A model generated the notes under the pieces. The model ran no database searches. It was not told where the DNA came from and was given only the letters and a program-made list of their open reading frames with translations. Positions 19,226 through 41,164 of a stretch of 64,000 bases of DNA are shown in pieces (the first letter of the stretch is position 1; every line of letters starts with the position of its first letter). Position numbers and translations under genes: made by a program. The DNA is from Gammaproteobacteria bacterium (lineage in GTDB: Bacteria > Pseudomonadota > Gammaproteobacteria > SG8-11). The stretch lies in contig JAHECY010000006.1 in NCBI GenBank assembly GCA_024641505.1, positions 1,512-65,511 on the forward strand. Direction: 5' to 3'.

Positions 19226-19257
19226 GTTCCCTATCTGTCAGGAGTCGATGTTGATGC

Positions 19258-22200: not shown

Positions 22201-22767
22201 CTGATCCAGATCGGGTTCGCTATCCTGCTGTGCCACCGCCTGCCGCAAGGTATGCACTTGTTCCCGCAGATGACTCATGAAAATCCCGAACAACTCCTGG
22301 TCGTGCTCTTCCTGATAGGTCTGCGCATCGGGCATAGCGGTTTCGGCCACGGTGGTCGCGGCGGCCAGCGGCGTATCGTTTTGGTCTTCAATCAGTACTG
22401 TGAGCTGATCCACCAGATCTTCGATATCAGATTGCTCTTCCTGAAACTCCTCCAGTTCCCGCACCAGACGCAAAATGCGATCGCGGGTTTCAATGAGCAA
22501 ATCGACGGTATCATTATCCGACTTCTTCTTTCCCTGACGCAAAATGTCCAGCAAATCTTCGAGTCGATGCGACAACCGCGACACTTTGTCCAAACCGGTG
22601 ATCTGAGACCCACCCTTGATGTTGTGCACCGGCCGGAAAATGTCATTGAGAGTGGTCAGATCATTCGGATCTTCCGCCAGCCTCAACAGCAGGACTTCTA
22701 TCTCATCCAGGTGTTCGCCTGCTTCGACAATAAAGTCGCCAAGTAATGCCAGGTTTATTTCACTCAT
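19258..22767 (-). CDS. cheA: CheA-family histidine kinase with two HPt domains (tandemly duplicated N-terminal module), dimerization, HATPase and CheW-like domains
   Basis: 1169 aa. HPt1 (FRPVHNIKGGSQITGLDKVSRLSHRLEDLLD) and a near-identical HPt2 (FRPVHNIKGGSQITGLAKISRLSHRLEDLLD). The H-box-less kinase core HIIRNAVDHGLE...DDGRGI...GRGVGMDVV. C-terminal CheW-like domain. Confidence 0.9.
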   Translation of the reverse strand: MSEINLALLGDFIVEAGEHLDEIEVLLLRLAEDPNDLTTLNDIFRPVHNIKGGSQITGLDKVSRLSHRLEDLLDILRQGKKKSDNDTVDLLIETRDRILRLVRELEEFQEEQSDIEDLVDQLTVLIEDQNDTPLAAATTVAETAMPDAQTYQEEHDQELFGIFMSHLREQVHTLRQAVAQQDSEPDLDQHLEWCGAVVEGLSSAANYMGYQDLVDMYGEWRGILSDSRQDVARGEVPDLEFMHEYLRRVTTLFPDLDTWQTAPHQPAMDANGRESPAPSVSADQDGLMPAVSDVTDDVMNIFMNMGVGGGVDIAEPDTAADAASASTAVPADELPEPRVILKPEPEMEINMGLLKDFIIEAGDHLDEIETILLQLSDDPQNLEFLNDVFRPVHNIKGGSQITGLAKISRLSHRLEDLLDLLRQGKMSSSTGTIDLLIDARDRIVQLVNELNIHEQELSAIDDLVMKISHRIDGSTGLSVAASPAIPAASLESVDAITETVGSSYEEEHDQELFGIFMHHLREQASILRKSVNELQKEPDKVQHLQWCDDTIGRLWSAANYMGYQDLASLYEEWRTRIEQASSAWAGGGKAPLEFMNKYLARLDGMFPQLRDVPTTAIKGEIIETVPVPARAPATGRKAAPAVAENQLYNQLSGALDSVMEKEASANKQETLNQVYDQMVAGAQAKAKTPTQQTKGNGQAPTAPRPESAPGTGDKRRVLDTMEKKIKKSMRVDAEKIDSLMNLVGELVVDRSYFFQLSNEMRVLQNYLKDVAGIDQKEIKMLRTFTYRLGEAIASLGRTSNELQEGVMKMRMLPISQIFNRYPRLVRDLTHTSDKKVELVIQGEDTELDKMIVEELSDPLIHIIRNAVDHGLENREERRKAGKPEAGTLTLNAYQESNNIVIEVTDDGRGISPERIKLKAQQKGLYTPEELERMNARDLTQLILMPGFSTAEKVTGTSGRGVGMDVVKRNIEKLNGILEIDSKPGVRTQMRLKIPLTLAIIHALMIRVGRDLFTIPLANVDETVRIFRHETSKVEGVEVIHLRGHALPIFHLSKLFSIKADENTDKVFVVIVNTEGARTGFVVDELIGQEEVVIKPLADYVQEKSGFSGATIVGDGRISLILDAHELVKMTSGRQAKMHRDQAQQLRTRIRRGPKRQQALPPAPPPDNVH

Positions 22768-22788
22768 TTTTTTTCCCTCAAAGCCGCC

Positions 22789-23139
22789 TCAGCTTCCCAC
22801 TAAGGCGAGAATCTGTTCGGATTTGTGTTTATTCACCAGACCAATGGCGCCGATGCGTTCCACTTCCCCGCGGTATTTATCCTCATCCATATTGGAGAGA
22901 ATCAGGATGCGCGCCTTGGCGTCTCGAGCCATGATTTCCTTAGCCGCGGTAATCCCATCCATGCCCCGCATGGTGATATCCATGGTGACCAGATCCGGGC
23001 GCAGACGCTCATACATTTCCAGTGCATCGGCGCCATTGGCCGCCTCCCCTACCACCTCATGGCCAGCATCACGCAAGGTTTTGACGATCACCTTGCGCAT
23101 CATGGTCGAGTCTTCCACCACCAGTATTCGCTTGCTCAT
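22789..23139 (-). CDS. cheY: CheY-like single-domain response regulator
   Basis: 116 aa. ILVVEDSTMMR...DLVTMDITMRGMDG...K motif set of a REC domain. Confidence 0.85.
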   Translation of the reverse strand: MSKRILVVEDSTMMRKVIVKTLRDAGHEVVGEAANGADALEMYERLRPDLVTMDITMRGMDGITAAKEIMARDAKARILILSNMDEDKYRGEVERIGAIGLVNKHKSEQILALVGS

Positions 23140-23179
23140 ATCCGCTTCCTGTAATCTTTAACCCTTATGCCCGGCTTAC

Positions 23180-23722
23180 TTACTGCACTATGGATTCTTC
23201 GCCCAGCGACAGCTCTTTGTAATTTGTTTCCTTCAACATATGGTACTCTTCGTTGAACAGGATGCGTTCGAAGCTCAGGATGATCAATAGCTTGCCGTTG
23301 ATATCGCACACCCCGTGGATGTACTGATTTTCCAGGCCCACCACAACGATATCCGGTGGCGGCTCTACTTTATCCTGCTCCACCTTCAGTACTTCCGTGA
23401 CGCGATCGACGATAAAGCCGATAACGCGTTCTTTGATGTTGAGAATCAAAATCCAGTTGCCTTCGCCGCCACCTTCCCCCATGTAAAGGTAAAGGCGCTT
23501 GCGCAAGTCGATGACCGGAATTATATCGCCGCGCAGATTGATTACCCCTTCGACAAATTCAGGCGAATTGGGCACCGCGGTAACCGGAGCCGATCGGATG
23601 ATTTCCTGAACCATCAGGATGTCGACTCCGAATTCTTCCTCATTGATCTTGAATCCCACCAATTGCATCAAGCCTTCGGCTTCGGCATCGGTCAAGGTAT
23701 CAAATCTAATTCGTTCTGCCAT
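23180..23722 (-). CDS. cheW: CheW coupling protein
   Basis: 180 aa with a CheW-like domain (EEFGVDILMVQEIIR...VINLRGDIIPVIDLR). Confidence 0.88.
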   Translation of the reverse strand: MAERIRFDTLTDAEAEGLMQLVGFKINEEEFGVDILMVQEIIRSAPVTAVPNSPEFVEGVINLRGDIIPVIDLRKRLYLYMGEGGGEGNWILILNIKERVIGFIVDRVTEVLKVEQDKVEPPPDIVVVGLENQYIHGVCDINGKLLIILSFERILFNEEYHMLKETNYKELSLGEESIVQ

Positions 23723-23812
23723 GTTGCATCTCCTGTAAAACGCCGCCGACCGGTCGCCGCCCTGTCCGGTATTCCCGGACAGGCACGGCGATTGATCGCG
23801 CCCATGCTACGC

Positions 23813-26272
23813 CTAGCTGATCTTGAACTGCGCTACCTGGCGTGCGAGAGCTTCTGACTGCTCCACCATGGTTTCCATGATGTCAGCGTTGGCGCCGGCA
23901 CCTTCCACCGTTTGCACCGCCGCTTGTCCCGATTCCTGGGACAGCTTGGTAATCGCCTTGGAACGTTGCGCCTGCAGACCGGTCATATGCTGCATTTCCT
24001 CACCGCTTCGTACTACACCTTCCATTTCATGACCGATGATGCGAGCGTTTTCATTAGCTTCCATAACCAGCGCCGAGATCTTGTTCGACGCCTGCAACAT
24101 CTTACGCAGCGAATCTTCCGCAACGGTACGACGCTTGGTATTTTCCGTAGCCATTTCACCGATTTGTTGCGCCAATGTGTTCAACTCGCGAATCAAACCC
24201 TGTACTTCAGTGGTACTGCCACTGAGGGACTCCGCCGAACGTTCGATGTCTTCGATGGAGCGCATGTTATCGCGACCGCCTTCGTCGATTTTGCGCAGCG
24301 CTTCCTGGGACTGGTCAGTCAGTTTTACCCCGTCCGCCACGTTGTTTGTGGAGTCCTTGATGAGCTGGGTGATTTCCTTGGCGGCCTCGGAAGACCGCTG
24401 GGCGAGTTTACCTACTTCATCCGCAACCACCGCGAAACCCTTACCGTGCGCACCGGCACGCGCCGCTTCTACCGCGGCGTTCAAGGCGAGCAAGTTGGTT
24501 TGTTCGGCGATTTCCGTGATTACCGAGATGATTTCCGAAATCTGTTCGGAAGATCCAGCGATGGCGCGCATACCTTCTACGGTAGCGGCCACTGCTTTCC
24601 GGCCTTCTTCCGCCGCTGCCAGCGAACCGCGACCGAACTGGGTCGCCTGTTGTACGGAACGTTGCATGGTATCCACCGCCGCCACCATTTCGTTGATAGC
24701 GCTGGTGACTCGCATTACCATCTTGCCCTGTTCCTGCGCGGACACCGCCACTTTCGCACCGGCATCACCCATTTCCGATACGCGGGACATGGTTTCGCCC
24801 GCTTCCCGGTCCTGGTTCCGTTGGGATTCGGATACGATACTCATCTTTTCCTGCAATTCGCGCAACAGCCCTGAGGATTTTTCCGCAGCGCCCTGCTGAC
24901 CACCGGCTTTTTCGTTGATCTGACCGGCGGTGGCGCCCATTTCCCCGATAACCTTTCCTGCAGTTTGGGAACGATTGAGCTCTTCCTCGGCACGCTTTCT
25001 GTTGTTGCCGGCGCGAGTCGCGGCTTCCGTGGCGTTTCTGGCGACATCACCGGCCGCGGAGTTTACCTCGACAAACGCGTTCTTGATAACATCCATCATA
25101 CCGTTGAACGATAACGACATGGCGCCGATTTCATCCTTGGATTCCACCGGCACATGAATGGTAAGGTCGCGTTTCTCGGCGATGTTCTGAATGGTGTCCG
25201 CCATCCGGATAACCGGACCCGCGATCACCCGGGTCAAGAACACAATCAATATTGCGCTGATCAGCAAGCCGGCTACCAGCAGGCCCCATTCGATGTTTTT
25301 CAAGCGTACGGTAAGAGTCGCCGCGGACGCTACGTCGTCCTGCAGCAATTTGTCCTGGCTTTCCACCAATTCAGAAAGCACCTCAACGATCGCCTTAGCG
25401 GTCGGTGCAGCGCGGGTCGCCAGCCAGAAATTGGCCAGGTTAGCTTCGGCGGAAGCCTGGATCTTAAACATCTTCTCGGGCAACGGTTCGAATTCCGCGC
25501 GTACCTGTTTGAACTGGTCAAATGCCAGTTTTTGTTCCGGTGACAGGTGCTGGTAATTATTGGCCAGGTCATTGAAACGCAGGGTATTCTTGGACCATAG
25601 ATTTTCGAAGCTGGTTTTCAAGGACTCATCTTTGGTGAGCAGGTAGGCGCGAATACTCGCCAAACCCAGACCGGTGGTACCGCGCACGTCAGCCATCATG
25701 TACAGAATGGATTTGCGTAATGGCGTACCCTCCAACTGGCCTTCCAAGTCGATCATGCGCGTGATCAACTCGGCGAGCTTGGCGGATCGCGGCTGTGCTT
25801 CTTCCGCCAGCATTTTCAGCGCCGGTTCCTGATCGACAGTGTTGGCGATGTCTTCGACTTCCTGCTGGTACTTGCGGAACAACTCCAGTTCCTTGCCGAT
25901 TTTATCAACGCGCTTGATGTTTTCCGCGTTGGTAAAATTTTTCGAGAATCCCTGCAACGCATCGAAGTTTTTGTCGATCCAGTTTTTCCAGCTCTCATCT
26001 CGTTGGGTCTTAAATTGTTCTTTACCCAAAAGCATCCAACCACGCAATGCCGCCAATGATTCGTTGACGCCGTTCAACAAGGAAAGACTGGCGCGGGCCA
26101 CCGGTGTTCGCAGTTCCGCAACCCGATTCGACAGAGTTTGCACCTCTGTTACCTCATAGATCGTTATACCTACCGCTGATACGAGCAACAATGCCATCAT
26201 GCCGAAGCCTGTGCCCAGCTTGAATGGCAGTCTCATATTAGCAAAGAGACCAAAGTTGGTATTCTTAGCCAC
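23813..26272 (-). CDS. Methyl-accepting chemotaxis protein with about 290-aa periplasmic helical sensor, HAMP and MCP signalling domain
   Basis: TM1 [17 protein letters not shown] and TM2 [21 protein letters not shown]. The highly conserved signalling tip [35 protein letters not shown]. No C-terminal NWETF-like pentapeptide. Confidence 0.9.
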
Positions 26273-26360
26273 TTTCTTTCCTCCGTTTCACCTGAATTAA
26301 GGCCAAATGCTGTGTGGTGGGCAAAAAAGCCGCTTTCACCAAGAGCGCAGGACCCGCGTT

Positions 26361-26390
26361 TCTGTTACTGTTACTGTTACTGTTACTGTT
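26361..26390. repeat. Hexanucleotide microsatellite (TGTTAC) x about 4.7
   Basis: tctgttactgttactgttactgttactgtt read directly, about 90-118 bp upstream of the MCP start codon, in the intergenic gap between the cheB-like2 and MCP genes. Confidence 0.9.
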
Positions 26391-26485
26391 TAAACTCTAA
26401 AGCCAATTTTCCGTCTGTTACTCATAATAATTTCGCATCTTGCAACCATACACAACTTCACGCCACGCGCTCTGGCAGCAATATT

Positions 26486-27589
26486 TTATTGCAAGTCGTT
26501 AATCACCTGCGCAAGTTGGCTGTCGCTTACCGTTGTTGCGTCCGGACACCAGGCGAGGGCGGCGTTGGCCATATTCTTGTACAAACAGGTTTTCAGGTCC
26601 TGCACCACGGCGCTTCCACCAACCCGGTGTATTTCCTCGAGGCCTTCGGCCCCATCACTGCCGGTGCCTGACAACACTACGCCCACGGCATTCTCGCCCA
26701 TGGCCTCAGCCACGGAAAACATCAACATGTCCACCGCACCCTTACGCGAAGCGAACGGCGCCGGTTGCACATGCAGGCGACAATTGTCGTCCGTTTGCCT
26801 ATGTACGGTCATGTAGTTACCGCCGGCGTTCAGATAGCACACCCCGGGACGCAGCAATTCATCATGCACGGCGCGCTTGACCTCGACTGCACTATAGTTG
26901 TTGAGGTAAGTGGCAAAGGCGTCAACGTACTCCTGGGCGGCGTATAAAGTAACCATATAAGCAACCTGCCGGTCAGCGCGCAAGTTGGGCACGATTTTCA
27001 GTAACGCACCATAACCACCTTCCGCGGCACCAATCGCGACGATGCGATGGCATTCCGGAAGCGACACGTCCTGTCCCATCAATTCAAGATTGGGTAGATT
27101 ACGGATATATTTGATCGCTTCCACTTCCACCACCGAGGCAAATTTCACCTTGTTACGAATTTCACCTTCCTGAGCGGAAACATCCTCGCCATTGACCGCG
27201 GATGGCTTGGCGATAAAATCCACTGCACCATAGCGCAGCGCGTCAAACGTCACCGCCGCGCCTTCCATGGTGAGGCTCGACAGCATCACCACCGGCGTCG
27301 GATAGCGAATCATGATATGTTTCAAAGCGGTGACTCCGTCCATTTCCGGCATGCGGATATCCAGCGTGATGACATCGGGCCTGTGCTCTTGCACCGCCGC
27401 CAGCGCCTCGCGGCCATTTTTGGCCACCGCCACGATTTCCACATCCTTGTCGTTCTGGAAAATACGGGTAACCGAATCCCGGAGAATCTTGGAGTCGTCC
27501 ACGATAAGCAACTTCAATACTTTACCGGTGCCACCGTCAATCGCCTCGGCAAACTCGTCTGAATGCTTTTTTACAGTGCTCATGCTCAT
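26486..27589 (-). CDS. Second CheB-like protein (REC + methylesterase fold) with apparently degenerate catalytic triad
   Basis: REC (LLIVDDSKILR...ITLDIRMPEMDG). AIGAAEGG aligns with IGASTGG (Ser to Ala). MVTLYAAQEY aligns with ITQHMPPGF (His to Tyr). SGTGSDG keeps the Asp. Start overlaps the upstream gene's stop (ATGA). Confidence 0.8.
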   Translation of the reverse strand: MSMSTVKKHSDEFAEAIDGGTGKVLKLLIVDDSKILRDSVTRIFQNDKDVEIVAVAKNGREALAAVQEHRPDVITLDIRMPEMDGVTALKHIMIRYPTPVVMLSSLTMEGAAVTFDALRYGAVDFIAKPSAVNGEDVSAQEGEIRNKVKFASVVEVEAIKYIRNLPNLELMGQDVSLPECHRIVAIGAAEGGYGALLKIVPNLRADRQVAYMVTLYAAQEYVDAFATYLNNYSAVEVKRAVHDELLRPGVCYLNAGGNYMTVHRQTDDNCRLHVQPAPFASRKGAVDMLMFSVAEAMGENAVGVVLSGTGSDGAEGLEEIHRVGGSAVVQDLKTCLYKNMANAALAWCPDATTVSDSQLAQVINDLQ

Positions 27590-28284
27590 CCTAGATATTT
27601 TTTCAGTTTTTCTTTCAAGGCCGCGGAGTCCACAGGCTTGGTCATGTACTCATCGGTACCGGACATTTTTCCTTTAAGTTTGTCAAACAACGTGTCACGA
27701 GAGGTAAGCACGATCACCGGCACATCCTGCAGACGTTCGCTTTTTTTCATGGCGGCCAGCACCTCATATCCGTCTTTTTTAGGGAGGATCAAGTCCAGCA
27801 GCACCAGATCCGGTACATCCCGACCCAACAGAGCCAAGGCCTCCTCCCCGTCCCTGGCTTCGGAAATGAAATATCCTTGATTCGCAAGTGATTCCACCAA
27901 CACCTTGCGCGCCAAACCGCTATCTTCCACAATCAAAATCTTTTTCAAGCCCATGGACGGCGACTGGTTGAAGTCCACGCCTAACTCGAGGAAGATGTCC
28001 TCGTTGCTCATGGCACCAACGGGCGCCGTCGTCACATTAGCGCTGCCCTGGGCATCGCCTTTAAAAAAGAACTTGGCACGTTCGATTTTCTTGATTTCCG
28101 CCAAGGCCGGAGCGCCACGCATATTGCGAAAGAACACATCGACGATATTGCCGGTATTCAGCGAAAAGATGACGCCATGGCCCTGATCCGTGTACATGTA
28201 CATAGCCCCGCTGTACCGTTCCTTGCACAGTTTCAGCAATGCCCTGGCGGCATCCTTGAAGGCTACAAGTTCATCTTTAGACAC
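27586..28284 (-). CDS. Response regulator with N-terminal about 110-aa uncharacterised domain and C-terminal REC domain
   Basis: The C-terminal half KILIVEDSGLARK...DLVLLDLILPKKDGYEV...TSRDT...K is a REC domain. The N-terminal domain (MSKDELVAFKDAARALLKLCKERYSGAMYMYTDQGHGVIFSL...) is not recognised. Confidence 0.7.
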   Translation of the reverse strand: MSKDELVAFKDAARALLKLCKERYSGAMYMYTDQGHGVIFSLNTGNIVDVFFRNMRGAPALAEIKKIERAKFFFKGDAQGSANVTTAPVGAMSNEDIFLELGVDFNQSPSMGLKKILIVEDSGLARKVLVESLANQGYFISEARDGEEALALLGRDVPDLVLLDLILPKKDGYEVLAAMKKSERLQDVPVIVLTSRDTLFDKLKGKMSGTDEYMTKPVDSAALKEKLKKYLG

Positions 28285-28700: not shown

Positions 28701-31025
28701 ATGCTTGAACCTAATGAAAAGGAGAGTTTGTTGTCGGATGCGGCGCACACCGACGTTAGCGAAACGCCGGAATACACCGATGTTGCCGTCGATTTAGACA
28801 ACAATGATGTTCTAGAACTGCAGAATAATTTGCAGGCCACGATCAAGGAACTTGCCGATGCCATGGATGCGGAAAATATGCAGCGACAGATGGTATTGCA
28901 GGCTGAACAACGCGACCAGGCCGAGCGCGCAATTGATGTTGAAATGTCCCACCCGCTCGATTCCGTAGAACATACTCCAAGCGCCGATTTTGAAATCCAT
29001 GACGCAGTTACCGTTTCCGCGACATCGACATCGGGGGTTACCGATAACCTGTCGCTGGATGAACTGCTGGCGGCGTTGAATATCAGCACCCTACCGCGGC
29101 CCGACGCGGTTGACGACAGCACCACCGAGACCACAAACGACATGCCGACCCAGGTACCGCGCATCGAGAACCTGTGGCAGGAACTCGGGGAAATCTGGCC
29201 GGTAATAACGCACCATCCTGAGGTGGTAACCAACATCGAGGAATTGTGGAGCAGGCTCAAGGAGGCGCACCATACTGGCACGCTGGGCACCGAACTTTCC
29301 CAGTTGTATTCTAAATTGACCGACGACGATACCGCTAACCCAGCACCGACGACCGCGCCACTTCGCAACAGTGATGAAGTTGCGGATATAGTCAGCCGTA
29401 TTCTTGCCGGAGTAAAGACCCGGGATATCATCAACGACACCGGTCCAGATGCGTCTGTTGCAGCGCCTCTCGCGAAACAGGGTACCGAGGAATTCGACGT
29501 CGACAATTTCCTGCAACGCTATGCCATGGACGCCGAACCCGCCCCGGCGGCCACCGTCGTACCCAAGGTTACTGAAAATCGCCAGAAAAAACCCAACACC
29601 GGCAACAAACTCACGATCAGTGCTGACGAGCTGGCGATACTGGAAAATATTCTGGGCGACCGCCTGGACCGTAACGCCATTGGCGCACCGGCGCTTGACC
29701 ATGACGCTGACGAAGTAAATACCGGGGGACATCCGCATTCTGACTCGCGGGAGATTGTCTCCCAGCCAAAACCAAACGGCACCGACCCGGCACCCATAAA
29801 AGACGTGGAACAGCCGGCGCGGCACAGCCGGTCGACCCATAAGTCTCCGTCGCGCAAGGCACACAAGTCAAGCGCGACCCACGCGACACCGACATCACCG
29901 GTTCCGTACCAGCCGGCACATACAGTTGCCAGTGCCGACGTCTCGGCGCTGGATACCAATGAAACTGATGACGATGCTGATAAAAAGTCCTACTGGCTGC
30001 CGCGCGTCACGGCCGCACTGGTAATTGTCGGTATTGCCTGGCTGTGGTTAAGTAGCGGTTCCGAGCAGGACCTCGTCGCCACCCAGGATGCAACCCGGGA
30101 AACCCGCAACGGCATGTCGCCGACACAACTTGCGGAAAATGAAAATTCAAAAACCCTCGCGGAAAGTAAAGCCGAGTACCGCCGGGCTGCGGAACAAGAG
30201 CATGCGCGCGTCGTCAGCGCCGCTGCTGCCCGCAAGACAGTCCCGAACGACAACCGTCCGATGATGCCAGGGGCGGGCAATGACACTGAAGCCAAGCGGC
30301 CCAGGGAGCTCAGTACTACAGAAGTCGCCAGCCAAATCCCGGGTACCGCAGGCGGTACCGGTGCGCCATCTGGCGTCACTGGAGACCACGTGCAAGCCCC
30401 TCCGGCCGTACAAAGTCTCGCCACCGGCTCGGTGCCCGTCGTGCCCGCGAATTCTTCGGAGCTGACGCAAAATACCGCCTACAACACGCTCACCGAAACC
30501 TTGAACCTATCCACGCAGAACATTCAAAATCTGGTCGATGGTTCCCTGGATCGTTTGCGTACCAGCACCCAAAATGGTTTGCAGGATCTTTCCCAACGTG
30601 TCAATCGGCTGGAAGACGCTATTGGCAAATTACACGCCGCCATAGAGTCCCTGTTGCACCAGAATAATGAGGCGCGCGCCGACCAAAACCGGAGTTTATC
30701 AGCATTGGGAGAGCGACTTGATGGTTTGGAAACCGCGCAAAAAAAGGCCTTTAATGCCAGAATCGAACGCGACAAGGAAGGCGTGACCATCGTGCTGACG
30801 GAACCACGCGCTGGCCGCACCGGCGAAAGTGGCGCCGACGGTACCTATGATGTGATCGTGCACACCGTGGTCAAAGGCGACACCCTGTGGGATATCGCCG
30901 CCAAGTATATCAACGATCCGTTTCGTTATCCGGAACTGGCCAAACTGAGCAAAATCAAGAACCCGGACCGTATCTTCCCCGGAGACCGGGTGCGTATCGT
31001 CCGACGTTATGTCACTGAACCGTAA
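28701..31025 (+). CDS. Large acidic single-pass membrane protein with C-terminal periplasmic coiled coil + LysM domain (HubP/FimV-like, reversed domain order)
   Basis: 774 aa. The N-terminal roughly 430 aa is highly acidic, low complexity, and has no signal peptide. One TM (YWLPRVTAALVIVGIAWLWLSS) is preceded by KK/R. C-terminal LysM (YDVIVHTVVKGDTLWDIAAKYINDPFRYPELAKLSKIKNPDRIFPGDRVRI). The minus ORF 28679-29506 is an antisense shadow. Confidence 0.6.
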   Translation: MLEPNEKESLLSDAAHTDVSETPEYTDVAVDLDNNDVLELQNNLQATIKELADAMDAENMQRQMVLQAEQRDQAERAIDVEMSHPLDSVEHTPSADFEIHDAVTVSATSTSGVTDNLSLDELLAALNISTLPRPDAVDDSTTETTNDMPTQVPRIENLWQELGEIWPVITHHPEVVTNIEELWSRLKEAHHTGTLGTELSQLYSKLTDDDTANPAPTTAPLRNSDEVADIVSRILAGVKTRDIINDTGPDASVAAPLAKQGTEEFDVDNFLQRYAMDAEPAPAATVVPKVTENRQKKPNTGNKLTISADELAILENILGDRLDRNAIGAPALDHDADEVNTGGHPHSDSREIVSQPKPNGTDPAPIKDVEQPARHSRSTHKSPSRKAHKSSATHATPTSPVPYQPAHTVASADVSALDTNETDDDADKKSYWLPRVTAALVIVGIAWLWLSSGSEQDLVATQDATRETRNGMSPTQLAENENSKTLAESKAEYRRAAEQEHARVVSAAAARKTVPNDNRPMMPGAGNDTEAKRPRELSTTEVASQIPGTAGGTGAPSGVTGDHVQAPPAVQSLATGSVPVVPANSSELTQNTAYNTLTETLNLSTQNIQNLVDGSLDRLRTSTQNGLQDLSQRVNRLEDAIGKLHAAIESLLHQNNEARADQNRSLSALGERLDGLETAQKKAFNARIERDKEGVTIVLTEPRAGRTGESGADGTYDVIVHTVVKGDTLWDIAAKYINDPFRYPELAKLSKIKNPDRIFPGDRVRIVRRYVTEP

Positions 31026-31205
31026 GGTGCGTACTACGCACCCTACGCAGATGCGAGAGGGGTGCGAAAATGCTTATGAACCAACCGGAAGGGCCGTAAG
31101 GTGCGTACTACGCACCGTTTTGCTACGCACCATCTCGCCTTTTTAATGTAGCAGCGCCGATCAAGATCCAGATCTAAAACCGGTGCGTAATACGCACCCT
31201 ACAAA
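31022..31205. repeat. Three REP palindrome copies
   Basis: gtaaggtgcgtactacgcaccctac at 31022 overlaps the LysM gene stop. Further copies lie at about 31088 and 31183. Confidence 0.8.
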
Positions 31206-31270: not shown

Positions 31271-31849
31271 ATGAAACAAAAGCTCCAGACCCGTCTTGTT
31301 AACTATTTCATGCTGATCGCCGTCGCCGCCATGCTTATTGGCGTGGAATTCTATTTTGAAATGAGCCGCACCGAGGTCACCAGCGAAATCTGCACAATCG
31401 CCGAACAACAGGCGGCCGGCGCTGACGGTGCCCTGCCCCTGGACAATTTACGCAATAAGATCGTGATCATGTTCGGGGTTTTGACCATTGTCGTGGCCAT
31501 TGTACTCACCATGTTCATCCGCAATATCACCGCTCCTTTACAAAAAATGGCGGATGTCGCGGCGCGCATCAACGAAGGTGATCTGAGCCTGAGCGTACCC
31601 ATCGAAACCCATGATGAAATCGGTCAGGTGGGCGATGCTATCAACGAACTCACCAGCAATTTGCAGGAAGTGGCCACCATGACCAGTACCACCGCCCAGG
31701 ATACCCTGGGTCAGATCGAACGTCTGCTGGAGGCCACACGCAAGGGTGACCAGATACCGGAAACACAAGCCAGGGAGATTCGCGCCAGTCTGCAATCACT
31801 GATTGAGTTTGTGGATTCCTTCAAACTGCTGAAAACGGATATCGCCTGA
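31271..31849 (+). CDS. Small membrane protein consisting of two TM helices and a HAMP domain, no recognisable output domain
   Basis: Start at MKQKLQTRLVNYFMLIAVAAMLIG. Second TM VIMFGVLTIVVAIVLTMFI. HAMP motif NITAPLQKMADVAARINEGDLSLSVPIETHDEIGQVGDAINELTSNL. Confidence 0.55.
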   Translation: MKQKLQTRLVNYFMLIAVAAMLIGVEFYFEMSRTEVTSEICTIAEQQAAGADGALPLDNLRNKIVIMFGVLTIVVAIVLTMFIRNITAPLQKMADVAARINEGDLSLSVPIETHDEIGQVGDAINELTSNLQEVATMTSTTAQDTLGQIERLLEATRKGDQIPETQAREIRASLQSLIEFVDSFKLLKTDIA

Positions 31850-31852: not shown

Positions 31853-32608
31853 ATGGAAGCACTGGGCCTGATCATCGCCGGCGTCTGCATCGCGTCCGCC
31901 GCCATGGCCGTCGGTATTGGCGGCGGTATCTTATGGACGCCATTGCTGATCCTGGCTTACGGTTTAACACCTCAGGAAGCGGTAGCCACGTCGCTGATGA
32001 TCCAGGTGGTGGGCATGGGCAGCGGCACCCTGGCCTATATGAAGGCCAAACTCACCCAGGTAAAACTCAGCCTGGTGTTTTTCTGTGCCGCGCTACCCGG
32101 CGTCATTATCGGCGGCTTCCTGAGCGTGCATCTCTCCCAGGACGCCGTGCAAATGATGTTGGGCGTGATGGCCATGACCGTGGCGGTATTGTTCGTCGCC
32201 GGCCAGGATCAGTTCAGTGAAGGCGGCAATTACGCGCCGGACCGGCGCAATATCGGCAAGTTACTGCCGATTCCGGCATTCTTCGGTTTCATGATGGGCA
32301 CCCTGTCCGTGGGGATCGGCGAGTGGCTGGTGCCGGCGCTGCGCCAGCGCCTGCATCTGGAAATGCGCCAAGCCATCGGCACCGTGATCCCGGTAATGTT
32401 TCTGCTCGCCATCTGCGCCTCCCTGGTCCACTGGAGTCAATCGGACAGCCTGCACTTGAACTATTTCGCCTATGGCGGCATCGGCACCTTTGTCGGCGGC
32501 CAGATCGGGCCGCGCATTTCCCAACGCATTGACGAACGCATCTTGAAACAAAGCTTTATCTATCTGATGACCTTGATCGGCATACATATGATTTTTCAGG
32601 CGATCTGA
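31853..32608 (+). CDS. TauE/SafE (DUF81) family anion exporter membrane protein
   Basis: 251-aa polytopic protein with the typical internally duplicated 4-TM architecture and a GIGGG motif. Begins 4 nt after the preceding stop. Confidence 0.7.
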   Translation: MEALGLIIAGVCIASAAMAVGIGGGILWTPLLILAYGLTPQEAVATSLMIQVVGMGSGTLAYMKAKLTQVKLSLVFFCAALPGVIIGGFLSVHLSQDAVQMMLGVMAMTVAVLFVAGQDQFSEGGNYAPDRRNIGKLLPIPAFFGFMMGTLSVGIGEWLVPALRQRLHLEMRQAIGTVIPVMFLLAICASLVHWSQSDSLHLNYFAYGGIGTFVGGQIGPRISQRIDERILKQSFIYLMTLIGIHMIFQAI

Positions 32609-33034: not shown

Positions 33035-33793
33035 TCACGCCGGCGGTTGAATATCCAGCACATGAATCATACGCAAACGCGTTTTGTCAAACACACCGAT
33101 AAACCAGTGGTAGCGAGACCGCACGGGAATATAAACAAGTTTGTCCCGGTCACCCTCCAGACCGCGCAGATATTCCTGATAAGTCCGCATGTCGTCAGGT
33201 TTCTGCGCTAAATAACTGTCCATATCAATCGCGGCGGCAATGATCTTTCCGATGTTGCTGTCATTGATCGGACGGAAGTGCTCACTGAAAAGATACACCG
33301 GTTGACTGTTTTTAAGCGCTCTGACACGCAGCGCCTGTTCAGATACGGGATCTTTCGGCATTTCGAAATAAATCAGCGCGGGTTGCTCCCGGTCAAACGC
33401 CGCCAGCTCGGATGTCGTCAACCCGGCCTCCGTCAAAATCGAGGTACTGATGGGATGAAAGCTCTCATCGGCGAACACCACGGCGACCGGGCGCTCGTTG
33501 TATACAAAATAGGTACCGGCGGTCAGTGCCAGGGTTTGAAACAGGGCGATGGCGCTCATGTCGAACTTCAACCCGGGTTTACCCTGTTTGAACACCACCA
33601 GCGTGAGCAAAGGCCCCAATACCACATCGACGCCTGCGACGATGCGAATGCCCTGCCAACCGCCGTCGCTGGTGAAATACCCGTGCGGATACCAATGCAC
33701 CAGGATCATATAGAGCAATCCCAAGAAAATACACAAACTGAGGGCGAAATGAATTCCGAAGGCTTGCCAGCGATTGATATTTTTCAAATGCAT
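33035..33793 (-). CDS. Membrane protein (3 N-terminal TM helices + about 140-aa soluble domain), possibly type IV pilin accessory protein (FimB/TfpY/TfpZ-like)
   Basis: 252-aa ORF divergent from pilS. TM helices FGIHFALSLCIFLGLLYMIL, IVAGVDVVLGPLLTLVVF and AIALFQTLALTAGTYFVY. The assignment rests on context and architecture only. Confidence 0.4.
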   Translation of the reverse strand: MHLKNINRWQAFGIHFALSLCIFLGLLYMILVHWYPHGYFTSDGGWQGIRIVAGVDVVLGPLLTLVVFKQGKPGLKFDMSAIALFQTLALTAGTYFVYNERPVAVVFADESFHPISTSILTEAGLTTSELAAFDREQPALIYFEMPKDPVSEQALRVRALKNSQPVYLFSEHFRPINDSNIGKIIAAAIDMDSYLAQKPDDMRTYQEYLRGLEGDRDKLVYIPVRSRYHWFIGVFDKTRLRMIHVLDIQPPA

Positions 33794-33985
33794 ATAGACC
33801 TCGAGAAATCCGCAAATAACACACAGAAGTATCCATCAAAATATCGTACCGGTGATGAATTACTTAAGCACGGAAATATCCGGTATTTCTCCTGCCTCCA
33901 CGGCGACCATACACGCGTATTCCGCAATTTGTGTCCGGCTGAAAAACTGACTTATATTTTGGGAAATTATGCCGAAAAACTGTCC

Positions 33986-35617
33986 ATGAGCATTCTTTCC
34001 ACTGCATATCCCGATCATCCGGCGGATTCTATCGAGGCGTCCTACCCGGATCATATTCACACCTGGCGACCGTTGTTCTGGCTGAATATCTATCGTTTCG
34101 TCCTCAGTTTGTTCCTGGTCGGATACTTGCTAAGCAGCGGCGACGAATCCTATATCGGAAAAATGCTGCCGGATCTGGCCAAGCATACCAGTGTCATCTA
34201 TTTACTGTTCAGCAGTCTGACCTTTGTCACCATACGCATGATGCGCCCCGATTTCATCATCCAGGTACATATGCAGGTGATGGTGGACATCACTCTGCTC
34301 ACCCTGCTGATGCATGCCAGCGGCGGCATTCAAAGCGGCTTGGGCATGTTCATCAATATCGTGATTGCCGGTGGCGCCATCGTGGTCCCGGGGCGCAACG
34401 CCAACCTGTTCGCGTCCCTGGCGAGCCTGGCGTTACTCGCGGAACAAGCCTCCGCTTACTTCAGCAGTGAAGTGCCTACCAACTATCCGCAGGCGGGCAT
34501 TCTTGGGGTCAGCTTTTTCGCTACCGCCACCCTCGCCTATGTGCTGGCACGGCGCATTCGTGCCAGTGAGGCGCTGGCCAGTCAGCGGGGCGCCGATTTG
34601 GCCAATATGGCGGAACTCAACGAGCACATCATCCAACAAATGGATTCCGGGGTTATCGTTATCGATCATCGCCTGACAGTGCGTCACGCCAACCGCGCCG
34701 CCAGCCGCATGCTCGCCAAAAACAATATTCTTTACGGTCAAAAACTTATTAATATCGCACCGGAACTGGCAACCGCCTACCAGCAATGGCGTGTACACCA
34801 GCAACCCCAGAACCGGGATTTGCATGTCATGGAGAACGGACGCGAGCTGCACCCCCAATTCATTCTGCTGGGCAGCCATGACGAGTCGGGCATACTGATT
34901 TTCCTCGAGGACATCAGTGATACCTTGCATCAGGCACAGCAAATGAAACTTGCGTCCCTGGGCCGACTCACCGCCAGTATTGCCCATGAAATACGCAATC
35001 CCCTGGGCGCCATCAGCCATGCCGGTCAGTTGCTTGGCGAATCGACCGCGCTGCCGCCGGCTGATCAGCGCCTGGCGCAGATCATCCAAAATCATACACA
35101 GCGGGTCAACGTCATTATTGAGAACATACTGCAATTGAGTCGCCGGGATCATTTTGCGCCGCAGTCTATCGCGCTTATTCCATGGCTTGACAAATTCGTC
35201 GACGAATTCACCACCGACAACGATTTACCGGCCGACAGTATCCAAATTATCGGACATAGTTCGCTGACCATTGTCATGGATCCATCTCAATTGCATCAGG
35301 TCATCAACAATATCGCGAGCAACGCCTTGCGCTATTGCGTGCGCACACAGTCACCCTGGATAAAACTGCTGGCCGGTGTAATCGCGGAACGGGAAACTCC
35401 ATACCTGGATATTATTGATAATGGACCCGGCATCCCGGCGCATTTTCAGGCAAATATTTTCGAGCCGTTCTTTACCACTGAAAACACGGGCACCGGACTA
35501 GGCTTGTATATCAGCAAGGAATTGTGCGCCATCAACAAAGCCAAGTTGGCTTACTTTATCACCAAAGAGGGTGAAAGCTGCTTTCGCATCTACTTTTCCA
35601 ATCATCAGCATGTGTGA
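33986..35617 (+). CDS. pilS: Sensor histidine kinase PilS (6-TM, PAS, HisKA, HATPase)
   Basis: Start at MSILSTAY (in-frame internal ATG; the ORF-track 5-prime extension overlaps the divergent gene). Multi-TM N-terminus. H-box SIAHEIRNPLGAI. N/G boxes (IIDNGPGIP...GTGLGL). Immediately upstream of pilR. Confidence 0.85.
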   Translation: MSILSTAYPDHPADSIEASYPDHIHTWRPLFWLNIYRFVLSLFLVGYLLSSGDESYIGKMLPDLAKHTSVIYLLFSSLTFVTIRMMRPDFIIQVHMQVMVDITLLTLLMHASGGIQSGLGMFINIVIAGGAIVVPGRNANLFASLASLALLAEQASAYFSSEVPTNYPQAGILGVSFFATATLAYVLARRIRASEALASQRGADLANMAELNEHIIQQMDSGVIVIDHRLTVRHANRAASRMLAKNNILYGQKLINIAPELATAYQQWRVHQQPQNRDLHVMENGRELHPQFILLGSHDESGILIFLEDISDTLHQAQQMKLASLGRLTASIAHEIRNPLGAISHAGQLLGESTALPPADQRLAQIIQNHTQRVNVIIENILQLSRRDHFAPQSIALIPWLDKFVDEFTTDNDLPADSIQIIGHSSLTIVMDPSQLHQVINNIASNALRYCVRTQSPWIKLLAGVIAERETPYLDIIDNGPGIPAHFQANIFEPFFTTENTGTGLGLYISKELCAINKAKLAYFITKEGESCFRIYFSNHQHV

Positions 35618-35623
35618 GGCGCC

Positions 35624-37000
35624 ATGAACACCCCATTAACCCTGCTGGTGGACGATGAACCTGATTTGTGCGAACTGCTGTCGCTGACGCTGCAGCGTAT
35701 GAACATCAACTCCCGGGTCGCCCACAATATCGAACAGGCAAAACAATTACTCGCCGACGAAAAATTCGATTTGTGTCTCACCGACATGAGACTGCCCGAT
35801 GGCAATGGCATTGATCTAGTGCGGCATGTACAACATCGGTACAGCGATTTGCCGATCGCGGTGATTACCGCCCATGGCAATATGGAAGCGGCAGTCGAAG
35901 CGTTGAAATCGGGTGCTTTTGACTTTGTTTCCAAACCCGTGAATCTGCAGGTGCTGCGTAATCTGGTACAAACCGCCCTGCGCCTGACCCAAAAGTTCCC
36001 GGAAACGGACCGCCGTACCCGCGACATCTTAATCGGCGATTCCGCGCAGATGCAGCAATTGCGCGGCACCATTGCCAAATTGGCGCGCAGTCAGGCACCG
36101 GTGTATATCAGCGGTGAATCCGGTACCGGCAAGGAACTGGTAGCACGCATGCTGCACGAAAAAGGACCCCGCGCCGGCGGTCCGTTCATGCCGGTAAATT
36201 GTGGCGCGATCCCGGGGGAATTGATGGAAAGCGAATTTTTCGGGCACCGCAAGGGCAGCTTCACCGGTGCGCACAGCGACAAACAAGGTTTGTTCCAGGC
36301 GGCTCAGGGTGGCACCCTGTTTCTGGACGAGGTCGCGGATCTACCGCTCAGCATGCAGGTGAAACTGCTGCGTGTGATTCAGGAACGGGCGGTGCGTCCG
36401 ATCGGCGATGCCAAGGAATTGCCGATCGACGTGCGCATCCTGTGCGCCACCCATAAGCCGCTGTCAACTCTGGTGGCCCAGGGCGCGTTTCGGCAAGATC
36501 TTTACTATCGCCTGAATGTCATCGAAGTCCGGGTGCCTCCGCTGAATCAGCGCATCGAGGATTTGCAGGAACTGGTCCCTCATATCATCAAAAAACTGAC
36601 CGGTAACGCCGTCCCGCCATTGACCGTCGACCCCGCGGCACTGGTCAAACTTGGCACCTATGACTTTCCCGGCAATATCCGGGAATTGGAAAACATTCTG
36701 GAGCGCGCCAGTACGCTGTGCGAAAACAATATCATTCGGGAACAGGATCTGGACCTCGGCAGATCCTCTTCCACTCTGGCACCGGCGCCGAAAGCCGAGC
36801 GCGAACCCCTCGAATCCAAAACCCATACCCGCGGCATGACACCCGACGAAAACCTCGAAGAGTACCTGGAATCCGTGGAACGCAGCACCATACTCGAAGC
36901 GCTGGCGGCTACCGGTCAAAACAAGACAGCCGCCGCCCGCAAACTCGGCATTAGTTTTCGGGCCTTGCGTTACCGGTTAAAGAAGCTGGGGCTGGATTAG
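35624..37000 (+). CDS. pilR: Sigma-54-dependent response regulator PilR
   Basis: REC (LLVDDEPDLCELL...LCLTDMRLPDGNG). Sigma54 AAA+ domain (GESGTGKELVARMLH...GAFRQDLYYRLNV with the GAFTGA-like ESEFFGHRKGSFTGA motif). C-terminal Fis-type HTH. Confidence 0.9.
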   Translation: MNTPLTLLVDDEPDLCELLSLTLQRMNINSRVAHNIEQAKQLLADEKFDLCLTDMRLPDGNGIDLVRHVQHRYSDLPIAVITAHGNMEAAVEALKSGAFDFVSKPVNLQVLRNLVQTALRLTQKFPETDRRTRDILIGDSAQMQQLRGTIAKLARSQAPVYISGESGTGKELVARMLHEKGPRAGGPFMPVNCGAIPGELMESEFFGHRKGSFTGAHSDKQGLFQAAQGGTLFLDEVADLPLSMQVKLLRVIQERAVRPIGDAKELPIDVRILCATHKPLSTLVAQGAFRQDLYYRLNVIEVRVPPLNQRIEDLQELVPHIIKKLTGNAVPPLTVDPAALVKLGTYDFPGNIRELENILERASTLCENNIIREQDLDLGRSSSTLAPAPKAEREPLESKTHTRGMTPDENLEEYLESVERSTILEALAATGQNKTAAARKLGISFRALRYRLKKLGLD

Positions 37001-37097
37001 GTGACCTTATCCTACACCCGCGAGTGTCCATTCTGGTCACCTGACCATTTGTATCAGCGCTTTCCGTTATATGGATATTACGAATACTGCTCTCCCC

Positions 37098-37140
37098 CGG
37101 GTTCAGCACTTGCTGCAGTGCTTGGCTAAGTTTTTGTTTT
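37098..37140 (+). terminator. Probable rho-independent terminator downstream of pilR
   Basis: agcacttgctgcagtgct hairpin followed by tggctaagtttttgtttt. Confidence 0.5.
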
Positions 37141-37201
37141 ACATTCCATAGTTACCCGTTCCGGCAAGATTCTCAAGTTTCGTCGCCATGCAACCGATAC
37201 C

Positions 37202-37217
37202 TGGCACAACTACTGCA
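37202..37217 (+). promoter_or_regulatory. Sigma-54 (-24/-12) promoter candidate for pilin gene
   Basis: TGGCACaactaCTGCA matches the TGGCAC-N5-TTGCA consensus (GG and GC 10 nt apart). About 140 bp upstream of the first pilin ATG, with the sigma54 activator PilR encoded adjacent. Confidence 0.5.
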
Positions 37218-37357
37218 CTAAGCACAGCAAGGCAAGTTTCCTGGGCCTTGCTTCAAGGATAGATCGGTTAATGCAGCGCCTAAAACAGACCACTGGCAAG
37301 GTTACAGGAAACTTGATCCCCCTGATTCACAACAATGCTTTAGAAGAGGAGCTCCAA

Positions 37358-37840
37358 ATGAAGAATGTAAAAGGTTTTACCTTGATCGAATTGATGATCG
37401 TGGTCGCGATCATCGGTATCCTGGCAGCCATCGCCATCCCGGCTTACAACGGCTACATCGCACAAAGTAAAGTTTCCGGCATGATCGAAAACATGGAAAA
37501 CGGTTTCCGTTTAGCCAAAGCCGAAGCTGCCAAAATCGCCGCTGGCGGTGTGTGCGTCAGCGTCGTCAACCAAGCCAATGACAATGGTGGAGTTGCACTT
37601 GCTGGCAAACGCGCTATCGGTGACCAAACCGTAGACGCATATGCAGTTGGTGCCGTCGCCAGCCCCGGCCAGATCGCCATCACCGACGCCGGCAGCACCC
37701 TGCCGACCGCCGCTGACGACAACGGCTGCCCGGAACCCGGTGACACTGTTGTTGTAACGATGACCCCGCCTGCAGGTCTGGTAGCCGCTGCGTTCCCTGG
37801 TGGCGCCCTGCCTGCTGACAAGACCTTCGTGGCCGAGTAA
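37358..37840 (+). CDS. pilA: Type IV pilin (major pilin candidate, PilA-like)
   Basis: Class III leader MKNVKGF|[23 protein letters not shown] (Gly-1, Phe+1, Glu+5). RBS agaggag. Two Cys (GVCVSV, NGCPEP) allow a C-terminal disulfide loop. 160 aa. Confidence 0.85.
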
Positions 37841-37887
37841 GCGGTTGATAAGCACGGAGCAGTAGCACCACACCGTGCTGATTAGGA

Positions 37888-37922
37888 TAAAAGGGGCTGG
37901 TAAACACTAGCCCCTTTTTTTA
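37888..37922 (+). terminator. Rho-independent terminator after first pilin gene
   Basis: aaaggggctggtaaacactagcccctttttttt: a GC stem followed by a T-run. Confidence 0.65.
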
Positions 37923-37952
37923 TGTTCAAGTTCCATCATGTGAGCAGCGACT

Positions 37953-38390
37953 ATGGAGTCCAGACAAACAGGATTTACTCTCATAGAATTAATGATTGTG
38001 GTTGCAATCATTGGCATCCTCGCCTCGATCGCCATCCCAGCCTACAACGGCCATATTCGCCAGACCAAGATAGCTGCGCTGATCGAGCATCAGGCAAATG
38101 CGATCAAGATTATCAAAAGCGAAGCCGCGAAAATCGCCGCGGGCGCAAACGGGGCCGATGTTATCGTGCAACTGAACTTTGGCGACCGTAAAGCGGTGGG
38201 CGACACCAGCGTAGCCGCATTTGTCGCCGCGGCGCCCGGCGCCCCCGGCCAAATAGAAATCACGGGCATGACCGGAGCCGGTAATGTGCCTTCACCGGCA
38301 GATGCAATTTCCGTCACCATGATTCCCATAGCCGCCACTAACGCCGCGGATTACCCGGTGCCATTAAGCATTACTTTTTCGGTTGAGTAG
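37953..38390 (+). CDS. Type IV pilin paralogue (no cysteines)
   Basis: Leader MESRQTGF|[25 protein letters not shown]. 145 aa. No Cys residues. Confidence 0.8.
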
Positions 38391-38762
38391 TGGTAGCGGA
38401 TTGTGACGTAATACCCATAACGGTATTAATGTTGCAATAGAAACCCAATGACTGGCGCCATTCAAGGAGTCTGATTTTTGGTCGACAGTATAGCGAGGGT
38501 GACCCGCTGGGCACGATACCCGGAGTCTCCCGCGGCCAATGACCGCCTTATGTGGGAAGGCGCTTTAATCATCCCACAAGTTTTCTTCAGGTGGACAGGG
38601 AGTTGTCTGCCTTATCCAGGTCGCGCATCGCTACGGTATAAATGGGCGCTGCGGTCCGACACGACGGGTAGCGACGTGTCCGGCGCCGCTAGCAGCACCA
38701 GCCGTGCGCTACCATGAGCAGTTTTTCCGGCAATGCCGGTTCCGTAATATTCGGAGGTATAA

Positions 38763-39170
38763 ATGAAATACTCTATCACAGCAAAGCGTTCCACCGGTTT
38801 CACCCTGATCGAAATCATGATCGCCATGGCGGTGCTGGGCGTAATCGCGGCGATTGCGATTCCCGCCTACAGAGGTTATCTCGCCACCTCCCGGGAAACC
38901 GAAGGCTGGAATAACCTCAACACTTTAGCCATTGCCGAAGAAGAATTTTTCCTGGAAAACAGTACCTACTTTGTCGGTACGGACACCGCCACATTGGTGA
39001 CCAGCAGCGGCGGCCTGTGGAACCCCGCCGAAACCGTTGAAACGGATCGCGCCTTCGTCTATACGGTGGCTGCCGGAACCACGGGCGCCGCCACCAGCAG
39101 TTACAGCGCGACCGCCACCGGTAAGGGCGATAAAGTACCGGTGACCACGGTACTCACAAAAGGCAACTAA
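38763..39170 (+). CDS. Type IV pilin-like protein (third paralogue, no cysteines)
   Basis: Leader [13 protein letters not shown]|[26 protein letters not shown]. 135 aa. Thr/Ser-rich C-terminus. Confidence 0.75.
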
Positions 39171-41159: not shown

Positions 41160-41164
41160 GACAC

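Follow-up and report, generated by a model that had tools for sequence, protein, structure and literature searches.

LysM-W, an acidic membrane protein with a C-terminal LysM domain and a candidate scaffold beside a gammaproteobacterial chemosensory operon

The LysM-W gene and the anatomy of its product

The stretch of DNA analysed here, referred to as the window, comprises 64,000 nucleotides of contig JAHECY010000006.1 (assembly GCA_024641505.1) from a gammaproteobacterium of the SG8-11 lineage. Between a minus-strand che operon and the pilSR-pilA-pilBCD genes it contains an ATG-initiated open reading frame (ORF; 28701..31025, +, as first noted) for a 774-aa protein designated LysM-W, which is identical to database record P0001. 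The ORF and family alignments delimit an acidic, predicted cytoplasmic arm (aa 1–435), one transmembrane (TM) helix, a disordered linker, a 79-residue helix that is a putative periplasmic stalk, a beta module, and a LysM domain. The initial annotation had described a 774-aa ORF with an acidic arm, a TM segment, a coiled coil, and a C-terminal LysM domain, and this anatomy was borne out by the ORF itself, Pfam, hydropathy, AlphaFold2 (AF2) modelling, and a heptad test. Pfam detected LysM alone in the protein, and NCBIfam returned just LysM-containing models, all far under cutoff. The AF2 model was built on the 19-sequence alignment of the family described below. A Foldseek search of the full-length model against the PDB gave nothing at E<0.5, the model being too disordered for fold comparison (predicted local distance difference test, pLDDT, of 54).

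A possible true start lies slightly downstream of the annotated one, at an in-frame TTG (codon 11, 28731–28733) preceded by the Shine-Dalgarno sequence AAGGAG (28719–28724; whole element 28719..28733, +). With its 6-nt spacer, this ribosome binding site is far better than that of the annotated ATG. Initiation at the TTG would cost the protein only 10 residues, so that the whole acidic arm is kept under either start, and all conserved motifs lie downstream of the TTG. The danger raised initially, that a downstream start might delete the acidic domain, is thereby removed. Conservation in homologues of the motifs at aa 44–57, 118–127, 155–187, 226–237, and 306–323 shows that the acidic N-terminal part is indeed translated.

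The arm preceding the membrane carries a net charge of −44, with a pI of 4.5 and 18% Asp and Glu, and across the family the corresponding parts are 350–610 aa long with 16–27% Asp and Glu and net charges of −29 to −139. AF2 placed helices at residues 34–81, 119–127, 151–170/173–191, 195–208, 223–246, and 308–321, and the segments between them had pLDDT values below 50. The N-terminus had been described as an acidic, low-complexity region without a signal peptide; its acidity and the absence of a signal peptide stand, but it is not of plain low complexity, since conserved short helices alternate with unconserved disordered linkers. Identity to homologues is 41–71% in a tryptophan hairpin and 56–83% in the LysM domain, as against 0–29% in the linkers. 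Such an alternation of motifs at 41–71% identity and linkers at 0–29% is what linear docking motifs carried by a disordered scaffold should produce.

The most distinctive of these motifs is a helical hairpin with three Trp residues at aa 151–191 (IENLWQELGEIWPVITHHPEVVTNIEELWSRLK; 29151..29273, +), which AF2 modelled as helices 151–170 and 173–191 and which serves as the family signature. The 33-residue pattern [IVM]E.LW..L...W.......P.......[IL]E.LW..LK was found in 19 sequences and is invariant at nine positions, including the three Trp. It had no chance occurrence among about 8,500 other ORFs, and a profile of the hairpin found no relative in the PDB. Upstream of it, AF2 and the alignment define a long helix at aa 34–81 (28800..28943, +; pLDDT ~90) with the conserved sequence DLQAxIxxLADAxD, as well as the short conserved acidic helix SLDELLAALN at aa 118–127 (29052..29081, +). 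The latter has 70% identity to both P0002 and P0003, compared with 4–26% in the neighbouring linkers, and is a weak relative of a repeated motif of the arm.

This repeat is an N-capped acidic amphipathic helix with the consensus SSEEEIDDLIADILGEDWL. Its strict pattern occurs 25 times in the cytoplasmic parts of the family, where 0.2 would be expected, and never in the periplasmic parts; a repeat profile identified up to eight copies per protein in distant family members. In the window protein, the clear copy lies at aa 222–240 (RNSDEVADIVSRILAGVKT; 29364..29420, +; 13 bits against the motif profile), and a conserved repeat-related helix lies at aa 306–323 (ISADELAILENILGDRLD; 29616..29669, +; alignment, and AF2 helix 308–321 with pLDDT ~73). 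Between the last motif and the membrane is a disordered, unconserved linker (aa 328–430; 29682..29990, +; pLDDT below 50, 11–22% identity to homologues) in which His, Pro, Ser, and Lys abound.

The single TM helix (aa 432–454; 29994..30062, +), evident in the hydropathy profile and as an AF2 helix at 432–452, is predicted to be oriented N-in. K428, K429, and R435 stand ahead of the hydrophobic segment (aa ~433–454) and acidic residues behind it. No N-terminal hydrophobic segment was found in any of the 19 family members, so there is no signal peptide. A highly acidic N-terminal tail of 350–610 aa cannot be translocated without one. Counted across all 19 members, there are 41 Lys and Arg (net charge −6) in the 15 residues ahead of the TM segment and 28 (net charge −20) in the 15 that follow it. 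From the absence of a signal peptide, the non-exportable acidic tail, the Lys and Arg bias, and the need of the conserved LysM domain for peptidoglycan, we infer N-in/C-out, which on these sequence features appears to be the sole reasonable topology. The final topology proposed in the initial annotation, with the acidic part in the cytoplasm and LysM in the periplasm, thus gained support from the missing signal peptide, the Lys and Arg counts of 41 vs 28, and the 56–83% identity of the LysM domain.

The predicted periplasmic part begins with a linker (aa 455–604; 30063..30512, +) that is mostly disordered and rich in Pro, Ala, Gly, and Thr, with one helix at 486–509 in the AF2 model. It is followed by a continuous 79-residue helix (aa 605–683; 30513..30749, +; pLDDT 80–90), in which the hydrophobic occupancy of heptad a/d positions is 0.61, compared with 0.45 ± 0.05 in shuffled sequences (p~0.006), and which gave a weak Pfam match to TolA_bind_tri. 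At 1.5 Å per residue its length is about 12 nm, and the modelled helix is therefore a plausible coiled-coil stalk spanning the gap between membrane and wall. The C-terminal region (aa 685–766; 30753..30998, +) combines the beta module (RDKEGVTIVLTEP) with the LysM peptidoglycan-binding domain. The Pfam match (PF01476, aa 721–766) has an E value of 4e-10 and 39.8 bits against a cutoff of 20.9. AF2 reproduced the LysM fold with strands at 714–722 and 763–771 and helices at 729–736 and 744–751, preceded by a four-stranded beta unit. The closest solved LysM domains in a PDB profile search are those of TsaP (6ve2_O, E 2e-9; 3jc8) in the pilus machines of P. aeruginosa and M. xanthus.

The LysM-W family and its conserved gene partners

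Word-indexed homologue searches with the single sequence or an 8-sequence profile retrieved only the protein itself and one relative, P0002, which has 35% identity to the window protein and derives from the metagenome-assembled genome (MAG) "Proteobacteria bacterium UBA6920". The same MAG was the sole match in a scan of a genome collection. The family was uncovered by an exhaustive HMMER search of 1.84 billion representatives, which yielded full-length relatives (P0003-6, P0011, and P0015) and many proteins of the same plan, i.e., 350–610 acidic residues, one TM helix, and a C-terminal LysM domain. A profile of the cytoplasmic part by itself also recovered proteins of this plan. Those that carry the three-Trp hairpin in the acidic arm, one TM helix, and the C-terminal beta module with LysM number 19 sequences, which fall into no fewer than 17 clusters at 50% identity. 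Every member comes from a metagenome or a MAG and is unnamed in databases; Pfam and NCBIfam detected only LysM in the 10 members that were scanned. A metagenome scan with LysM-peptide probes gave 80 LysM-only loci, none of which matched the cytoplasmic or coiled-coil profile of the family. By sequence, LysM-W is a distinct, unannotated family with the window protein as its founder, and its carriers are uncultured, probably sulfur-oxidising, gammaproteobacteria.

A literature search of limited reach gave no description of such a family, and LysM-W would accordingly be a new family of wall-anchored acidic scaffolds. What is new is its signature and its obligate partners; the plan of a wall-anchored acidic scaffold is already known. 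Separately, hundreds of proteins (P0019-P0151 among them) share a beta strand (..GVTI.L..P) and LysM at the C-terminus after a single TM segment, and their N-terminal parts are non-acidic and 340–430 aa long. Judged by their sequences, these proteins form a broader uncharacterised superfamily of predicted N-in, LysM-out topology.

Gene order was compared by local phmmer between the window and eleven further loci of the family. The most constant neighbour is a gene for a HAMP-only protein, which follows the LysM-W gene in 12/12 loci, once past an inserted hemerythrin gene and once as a remnant. In the window (31271..31849, +; Pfam HAMP) it encodes a protein of ~192 aa with two TM helices. The ORF is listed from GTG 31208, a start that is probably wrong, as homologues favour ATG 31271. 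The TM helices, the HAMP domain, and a C-terminal sequence (L.SL..FV.SF.LL.TD) are conserved, and the periplasmic loop of ~30 residues is variable. The protein has no output domain. The second partner, a 251-aa permease of the TauE/SafE (TSUP) family by Pfam (31853..32608, +), follows in 10/11 informative loci.

The association with che genes is also widespread. They adjoin the LysM-W gene in 9/10 informative loci in varied arrangements, and a response regulator (RR) of the type encoded in the window (232 aa; 27586..28284, −) does so in 6/9 informative loci. The LysM-W gene is divergent from this regulator in the window and in loci L001, L004, L086, and L087; in L090 it is co-directional with, and downstream of, a related regulator. 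Elsewhere it lies on the same strand 24 nt (L088) or 15 nt (P0015 contig) after cheW, and in L088 and L093 it is convergent with a CheB-ParA-ABC transporter block. ParA is visible in only three loci, and the ParA and ABC transporter genes are present in 3/3 loci of sufficient reach (window, L088, and L093). Genes for pili are nearby in just the three loci closest to the window, and the HAMP/TauE/che linkage persists in L088, L090-L093, and the P0015 contig, whose surroundings lack pil genes. That the linkage survives these rearrangements argues that the protein is functionally tied to the chemosensory cluster. The tie to the che operon suggested in the initial annotation was thus extended across 12 loci and two arrangements; that annotation had missed the HAMP and TauE partners and the pilus context. 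The gene order argues that the HAMP protein and the TauE permease are tied to LysM-W more tightly than the che genes are.

A putative peptidoglycan-anchored scaffold and its alternatives

LysM-W shares with FimV/HubP/TspA of Pseudomonas, Vibrio, Shewanella, and Neisseria a periplasmic LysM domain, one TM segment between the LysM and acidic sides, and a long acidic stretch in the cytoplasm that is mostly unstructured. The order of the domains is inverted, however, with the arm first, LysM last (aa 721–766), and no signal peptide, whereas in FimV/HubP an N-terminal periplasmic LysM domain follows a signal peptide or anchor. The likeness to HubP/FimV noted initially is not one of descent: only LysM matches, the C-terminal TPR "FimV domain" is absent, and there is no sequence similarity beyond LysM. 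No TPR or FimV model in Pfam/NCBIfam matched at E≤1, and no FimV chain appeared in the PDB profile search. LysM-W alone has the Trp hairpin, the N-capped acidic helices, the long periplasmic coiled coil, and the obligate HAMP/TauE neighbours. In contrast, the parallel to HubP drawn in the initial annotation is reinforced by the recurrence of acidic motifs along the disordered arm. The cytoplasmic region of HubP contains imperfect acidic repeats, and it is apparently these repeats or the periplasmic part, not the TPR domain, that position the chemotaxis array by way of ParC/ParP (PMC12918733). The Pil-Chp regulator PilG requires FimV for its signalling, as does PilS for its polar location (10.1101/116954).

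The idea of a "reverse topology" put forward for this protein is sound, but PodJ of Caulobacter crescentus is already a precedent (PMC9684454). Both proteins have a cytoplasmic N-terminus with helices and an intrinsically disordered region (IDR), a TM segment, and a periplasmic peptidoglycan-binding C-terminus; the corresponding elements of LysM-W are the helices at 34–81 and 151–246, the disordered segment 328–430, the TM helix 432–452, and the periplasmic part 455–774. The IDR of PodJ recruits PleC and the pilus-assembly ATPase CpaE (PMC9684454). Between PodJ and LysM-W no homology is detectable. PodJ has TPR/Sel1 repeats and a PG_binding-type domain, neither of which was found by Pfam in LysM-W (LysM only), and LysM-W has a coiled coil and LysM instead; PodJ belongs to the alphaproteobacterial cell cycle and LysM-W to a che-linked cluster. 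TsaP, the owner of the nearest solved LysM domain, binds peptidoglycan in a pilus context, but it is soluble and periplasmic, carries its LysM domain at the N-terminus, and lacks both a TM segment and a cytoplasmic arm. SPOR proteins of the FtsN/DamX type resemble LysM-W in being N-in with a single TM segment, a flexible linker in the periplasm, and a peptidoglycan-binding domain at the C-terminus. They differ in having SPOR rather than LysM, a short cytoplasmic part, a role in cell division, and no che linkage.

The divergent neighbour of LysM-W gives an indication of the pathway that the protein may serve. The 232-aa RR consists of a putative PATAN-like N-terminal domain and a REC domain. 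The AF2 model (pLDDT 84) has a compact N-terminal domain of ~110 aa that Pfam left unassigned in the window protein, while DUF4388/PATAN was weakly matched by 17/61 members of its family (best E 0.002). Homologues of the regulator carry the JGI name PilG. These sequence matches suggest that it is a divergent gammaproteobacterial regulator of the PatA type. The combination of a PATAN-REC regulator with a single-domain CheY is a hallmark of the chemosensory systems that steer cyanobacterial pili, and the cyanobacterial PATAN domain binds PilB and PilC (10.1101/2021.06.11.447907). In Synechocystis, PATAN regulators stay at the membrane without PilB/PilC, from which the involvement of "additional proteins" was deduced (10.1101/2021.06.11.447907). 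Given the PATAN-like RR, the CheY, and the adjoining pilus locus, the chemosensory system of the window is most likely of the pilus-controlling type.

Taken together, LysM-W may be a bitopic inner-membrane protein that acts as a peptidoglycan-anchored scaffold of a pilus-type (Chp/Tax-like) chemosensory module, although we favour this only tentatively. In such a scaffold, the LysM tip would tether LysM-W to peptidoglycan, perhaps at the poles or septum after the example of FimV, and the coiled-coil stalk would bridge the gap between membrane and wall. The Trp hairpin and the acidic helices on their flexible tethers would be docking sites that hold soluble signalling proteins there. Candidate clients are the divergent PATAN-like RR, CheY, the CheW/CheA array, and the zinc-ribbon ParA ATPase, and LysM-W, the HAMP protein, and the TauE permease would act together in the membrane. 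In function, LysM-W could then correspond to FimV/HubP, to FimV-FimL-PilG in Pseudomonas, and to PodJ, as an analogue without common descent, a comparison to which we attach the same cautious preference. A more elaborate version is unlikely. In it, LysM-W, the HAMP-only protein, and TauE would constitute a peptidoglycan-anchored input/output platform of a pilus-steering pathway, with the arm docking PATAN-REC/CheY and/or ParA and the array; LysM-W would be the missing membrane factor of PATAN regulators, and the arrangement a convergent, inverted FimV-FimL-PilG axis.

Several observations weigh against the scaffold interpretation. The topology was deduced from sequence features rather than taken from a dedicated predictor, and the global AF2 model is poor (pLDDT 54, pTM 0.25), its pattern along the sequence being nevertheless informative. 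The window protein has one clear repeat copy (aa 222–240), with weaker relatives at 118–127 and 306–323. A relation of the repeats to the CheY-binding peptides of FliM/CheZ type (LSQxEIDALL / VDDLLDSLGF) was considered, rejected as evidence, and survives only as a hypothesis. The resemblance falls short of significance, the repeat being an idealised N-capped amphipathic helix: the repeat profile scored −1.6 and −1.2 bits on authentic E. coli FliM and CheZ, no better than on unrelated helices. The repeats may also resemble the N-terminal helix of PopZ. Designed helical repeats were the sole matches in a PDB-wide search with this profile, and the acidic repeat may be just a generic amphipathic helix. 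In locus L091, the upstream neighbour is a HEAT-repeat gene and no che gene is in view. The closest genetic link is to HAMP and TauE, and not to the ParA, RR, or pil genes, which a pure landmark model leaves unexplained.

The main alternative, itself doubtful, is one in which TauE as a trigger transporter, the HAMP-only protein as an intramembrane co-sensor, and LysM-W form a membrane sensory input complex and not a landmark. With comparable doubt, such a complex could report transport, sulfonate/sulfite status, or the state of the envelope, with the acidic arm transmitting or buffering the signal. HAMP (12/12) and TauE (10/11) are more constant neighbours than any che gene, and the alternative would explain why LysM-W, HAMP, and TauE form an invariant gene core. 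The conserved TM helices and HAMP domain with a variable periplasmic loop resemble intramembrane or transporter-coupled sensors, and the SsuA/TauA-type ABC transporter at the end of the che operon is in keeping with a sulfonate theme. Pairs of a bitopic N-in regulator and a transporter are known, e.g., CadC-LysP. On the other hand, LysM-W has no output domain, and signalling would not require a peptidoglycan-binding tip on a 12-nm stalk with a 430-aa disordered, multivalent arm, features that typify anchoring scaffolds. The sensory complex is compatible with the scaffold, and the two are non-exclusive.

It is improbable that LysM-W is primarily a type IV pilus assembly or anchoring factor, whose LysM domain positions the secretin/alignment complex in peptidoglycan (cf. 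TsaP and the periplasmic part of FimV) and whose che linkage is secondary. The nearest solved LysM domains do belong to TsaP, in the window, L001, and L087 the gene is flanked by the che operon and pilSR-pilA-pilBCD, and the LysM domain of FimV is required for twitching (10.1101/116954); but a LysM match of E 2e-9 is generic, the signature that the family conserves is cytoplasmic, and distant members without pil genes nearby keep the HAMP/TauE/che linkage. Very improbable is an envelope protein unrelated to chemosensing, of the division-site or peptidoglycan-remodelling (FtsN/DamX) type, that is merely carried here. Although its general plan is shared with SPOR-domain division proteins and many proteins have the same beta-plus-LysM C-terminus behind other N-termini, the linkage is kept through rearrangements, including intra-operon positions 15–24 nt after cheW, and there is no association with the dcw cluster, which is 20 kb distant. 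The persistence of the che/HAMP/TauE linkage in loci without pil genes makes both of these roles less likely.

Landmark proteins such as FimV, HubP, PodJ, and PopZ decide the placement of pili, flagella, and chemoreceptor arrays, and only a handful of families are known. If LysM-W is one of them, it adds a family that no database annotates, with a sharp cytoplasmic signature in a chemosensory/pilus cluster, and the design of a LysM anchor plus an acidic disordered arm would have arisen more than once and in both orientations. The obligate pairing with HAMP-only and TSUP proteins hints at a link from transport sensing to the spatial organisation of signalling. The Trp hairpin and the repeated acidic helices are concrete, short motifs for interaction studies. 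Specialists in bacterial polarity and chemosensory arrays are likely to be interested in the family, whose function is predicted and whose carriers are uncultured.

Other features of the window

The che operon runs away from the LysM-W gene in the order RR, CheB, methyl-accepting chemotaxis protein (MCP), CheW, CheY, CheA, CheB, zinc-ribbon ParA, and ABC transporter. Beyond the 232-aa RR, its remainder (17070..27589, −) consists of CheB (26486-27589, −), MCP (23813-26272, −), CheW (23180-23722, −), CheY (22789-23139, −), a CheA of 1169 aa (19258-22767, −), a second CheB (18146-19225, −), and a ParA/MinD ATPase whose N-terminus bears an MJ0042-type zinc ribbon (17070-18050, −). The N-terminal, Hpt-containing module of CheA (~330 aa) is tandemly duplicated (49% identity, E 3e-88). 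Its homologue in L086 gave a faint match to FimL_C, which would make it ChpA-like. The operon has two CheB methylesterase paralogues, and a phmmer search with E. coli CheR found no CheR in the window. It continues into a transporter of the SsuA/TauA type (permease, ATPase, and binding protein; 14000..17052, −); with this ABC transporter on one side and the TauE permease on the other, the che cluster shows a sulfonate/sulfite theme. Just upstream of the ABC/ParA/che block is a gene for a HAMP-adenylate/guanylate cyclase (11114-12817, +). In Pseudomonas, FimV and Pil-Chp control the adenylate cyclase CyaB, and by analogy the cyclase may be relevant to the LysM-W/che system.

On the other side of the LysM-W gene, past the HAMP and TauE genes, lies a type IVa pilus locus (33035..43386, mixed strands) with genes for a TfpX/TfpZ-like protein (−), PilS, PilR, three pilins, PilB, PilC, and PilD. 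The TfpX/TfpZ-family gene (33035-33793, −) overlaps the first ~170 codons of the listed PilS ORF (33278-35617, +); as homologues of PilS are 549–575 aa long, pilS probably begins close to 33.9 kb. Beyond pilD are coaE and zapD, and further on argJ, secA, and the dcw cluster (20 kb from the LysM-W gene). Such a gene order from pilus to dcw is typical for Gammaproteobacteria.

Rfam and tRNA scans of the window found nothing. Three palindromes resembling repetitive extragenic palindromic (REP) elements, GGTGCGTA[AC]TACGCACC, lie right after the LysM-W stop (31026..31198), the first of them touching the stop codon. The 17-bp palindrome GGTGCGTA[ACT]TACGCACC has 15 copies in the window, where 0 would be expected, and all are intergenic (10441-10945, 13983-13999, 31026-31198, 32658-32674, and 47463-47758); they often stand in arrays at intervals of ~86 or 110 bp. 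Near the start of the window, an operon for a MoxR AAA ATPase, a DUF58 protein, and two VWA proteins, together with a 526-aa ORF without a Pfam match (3441-10325, −), has a markedly higher GC content (0.61–0.65) than the che/pil region (0.51–0.55).

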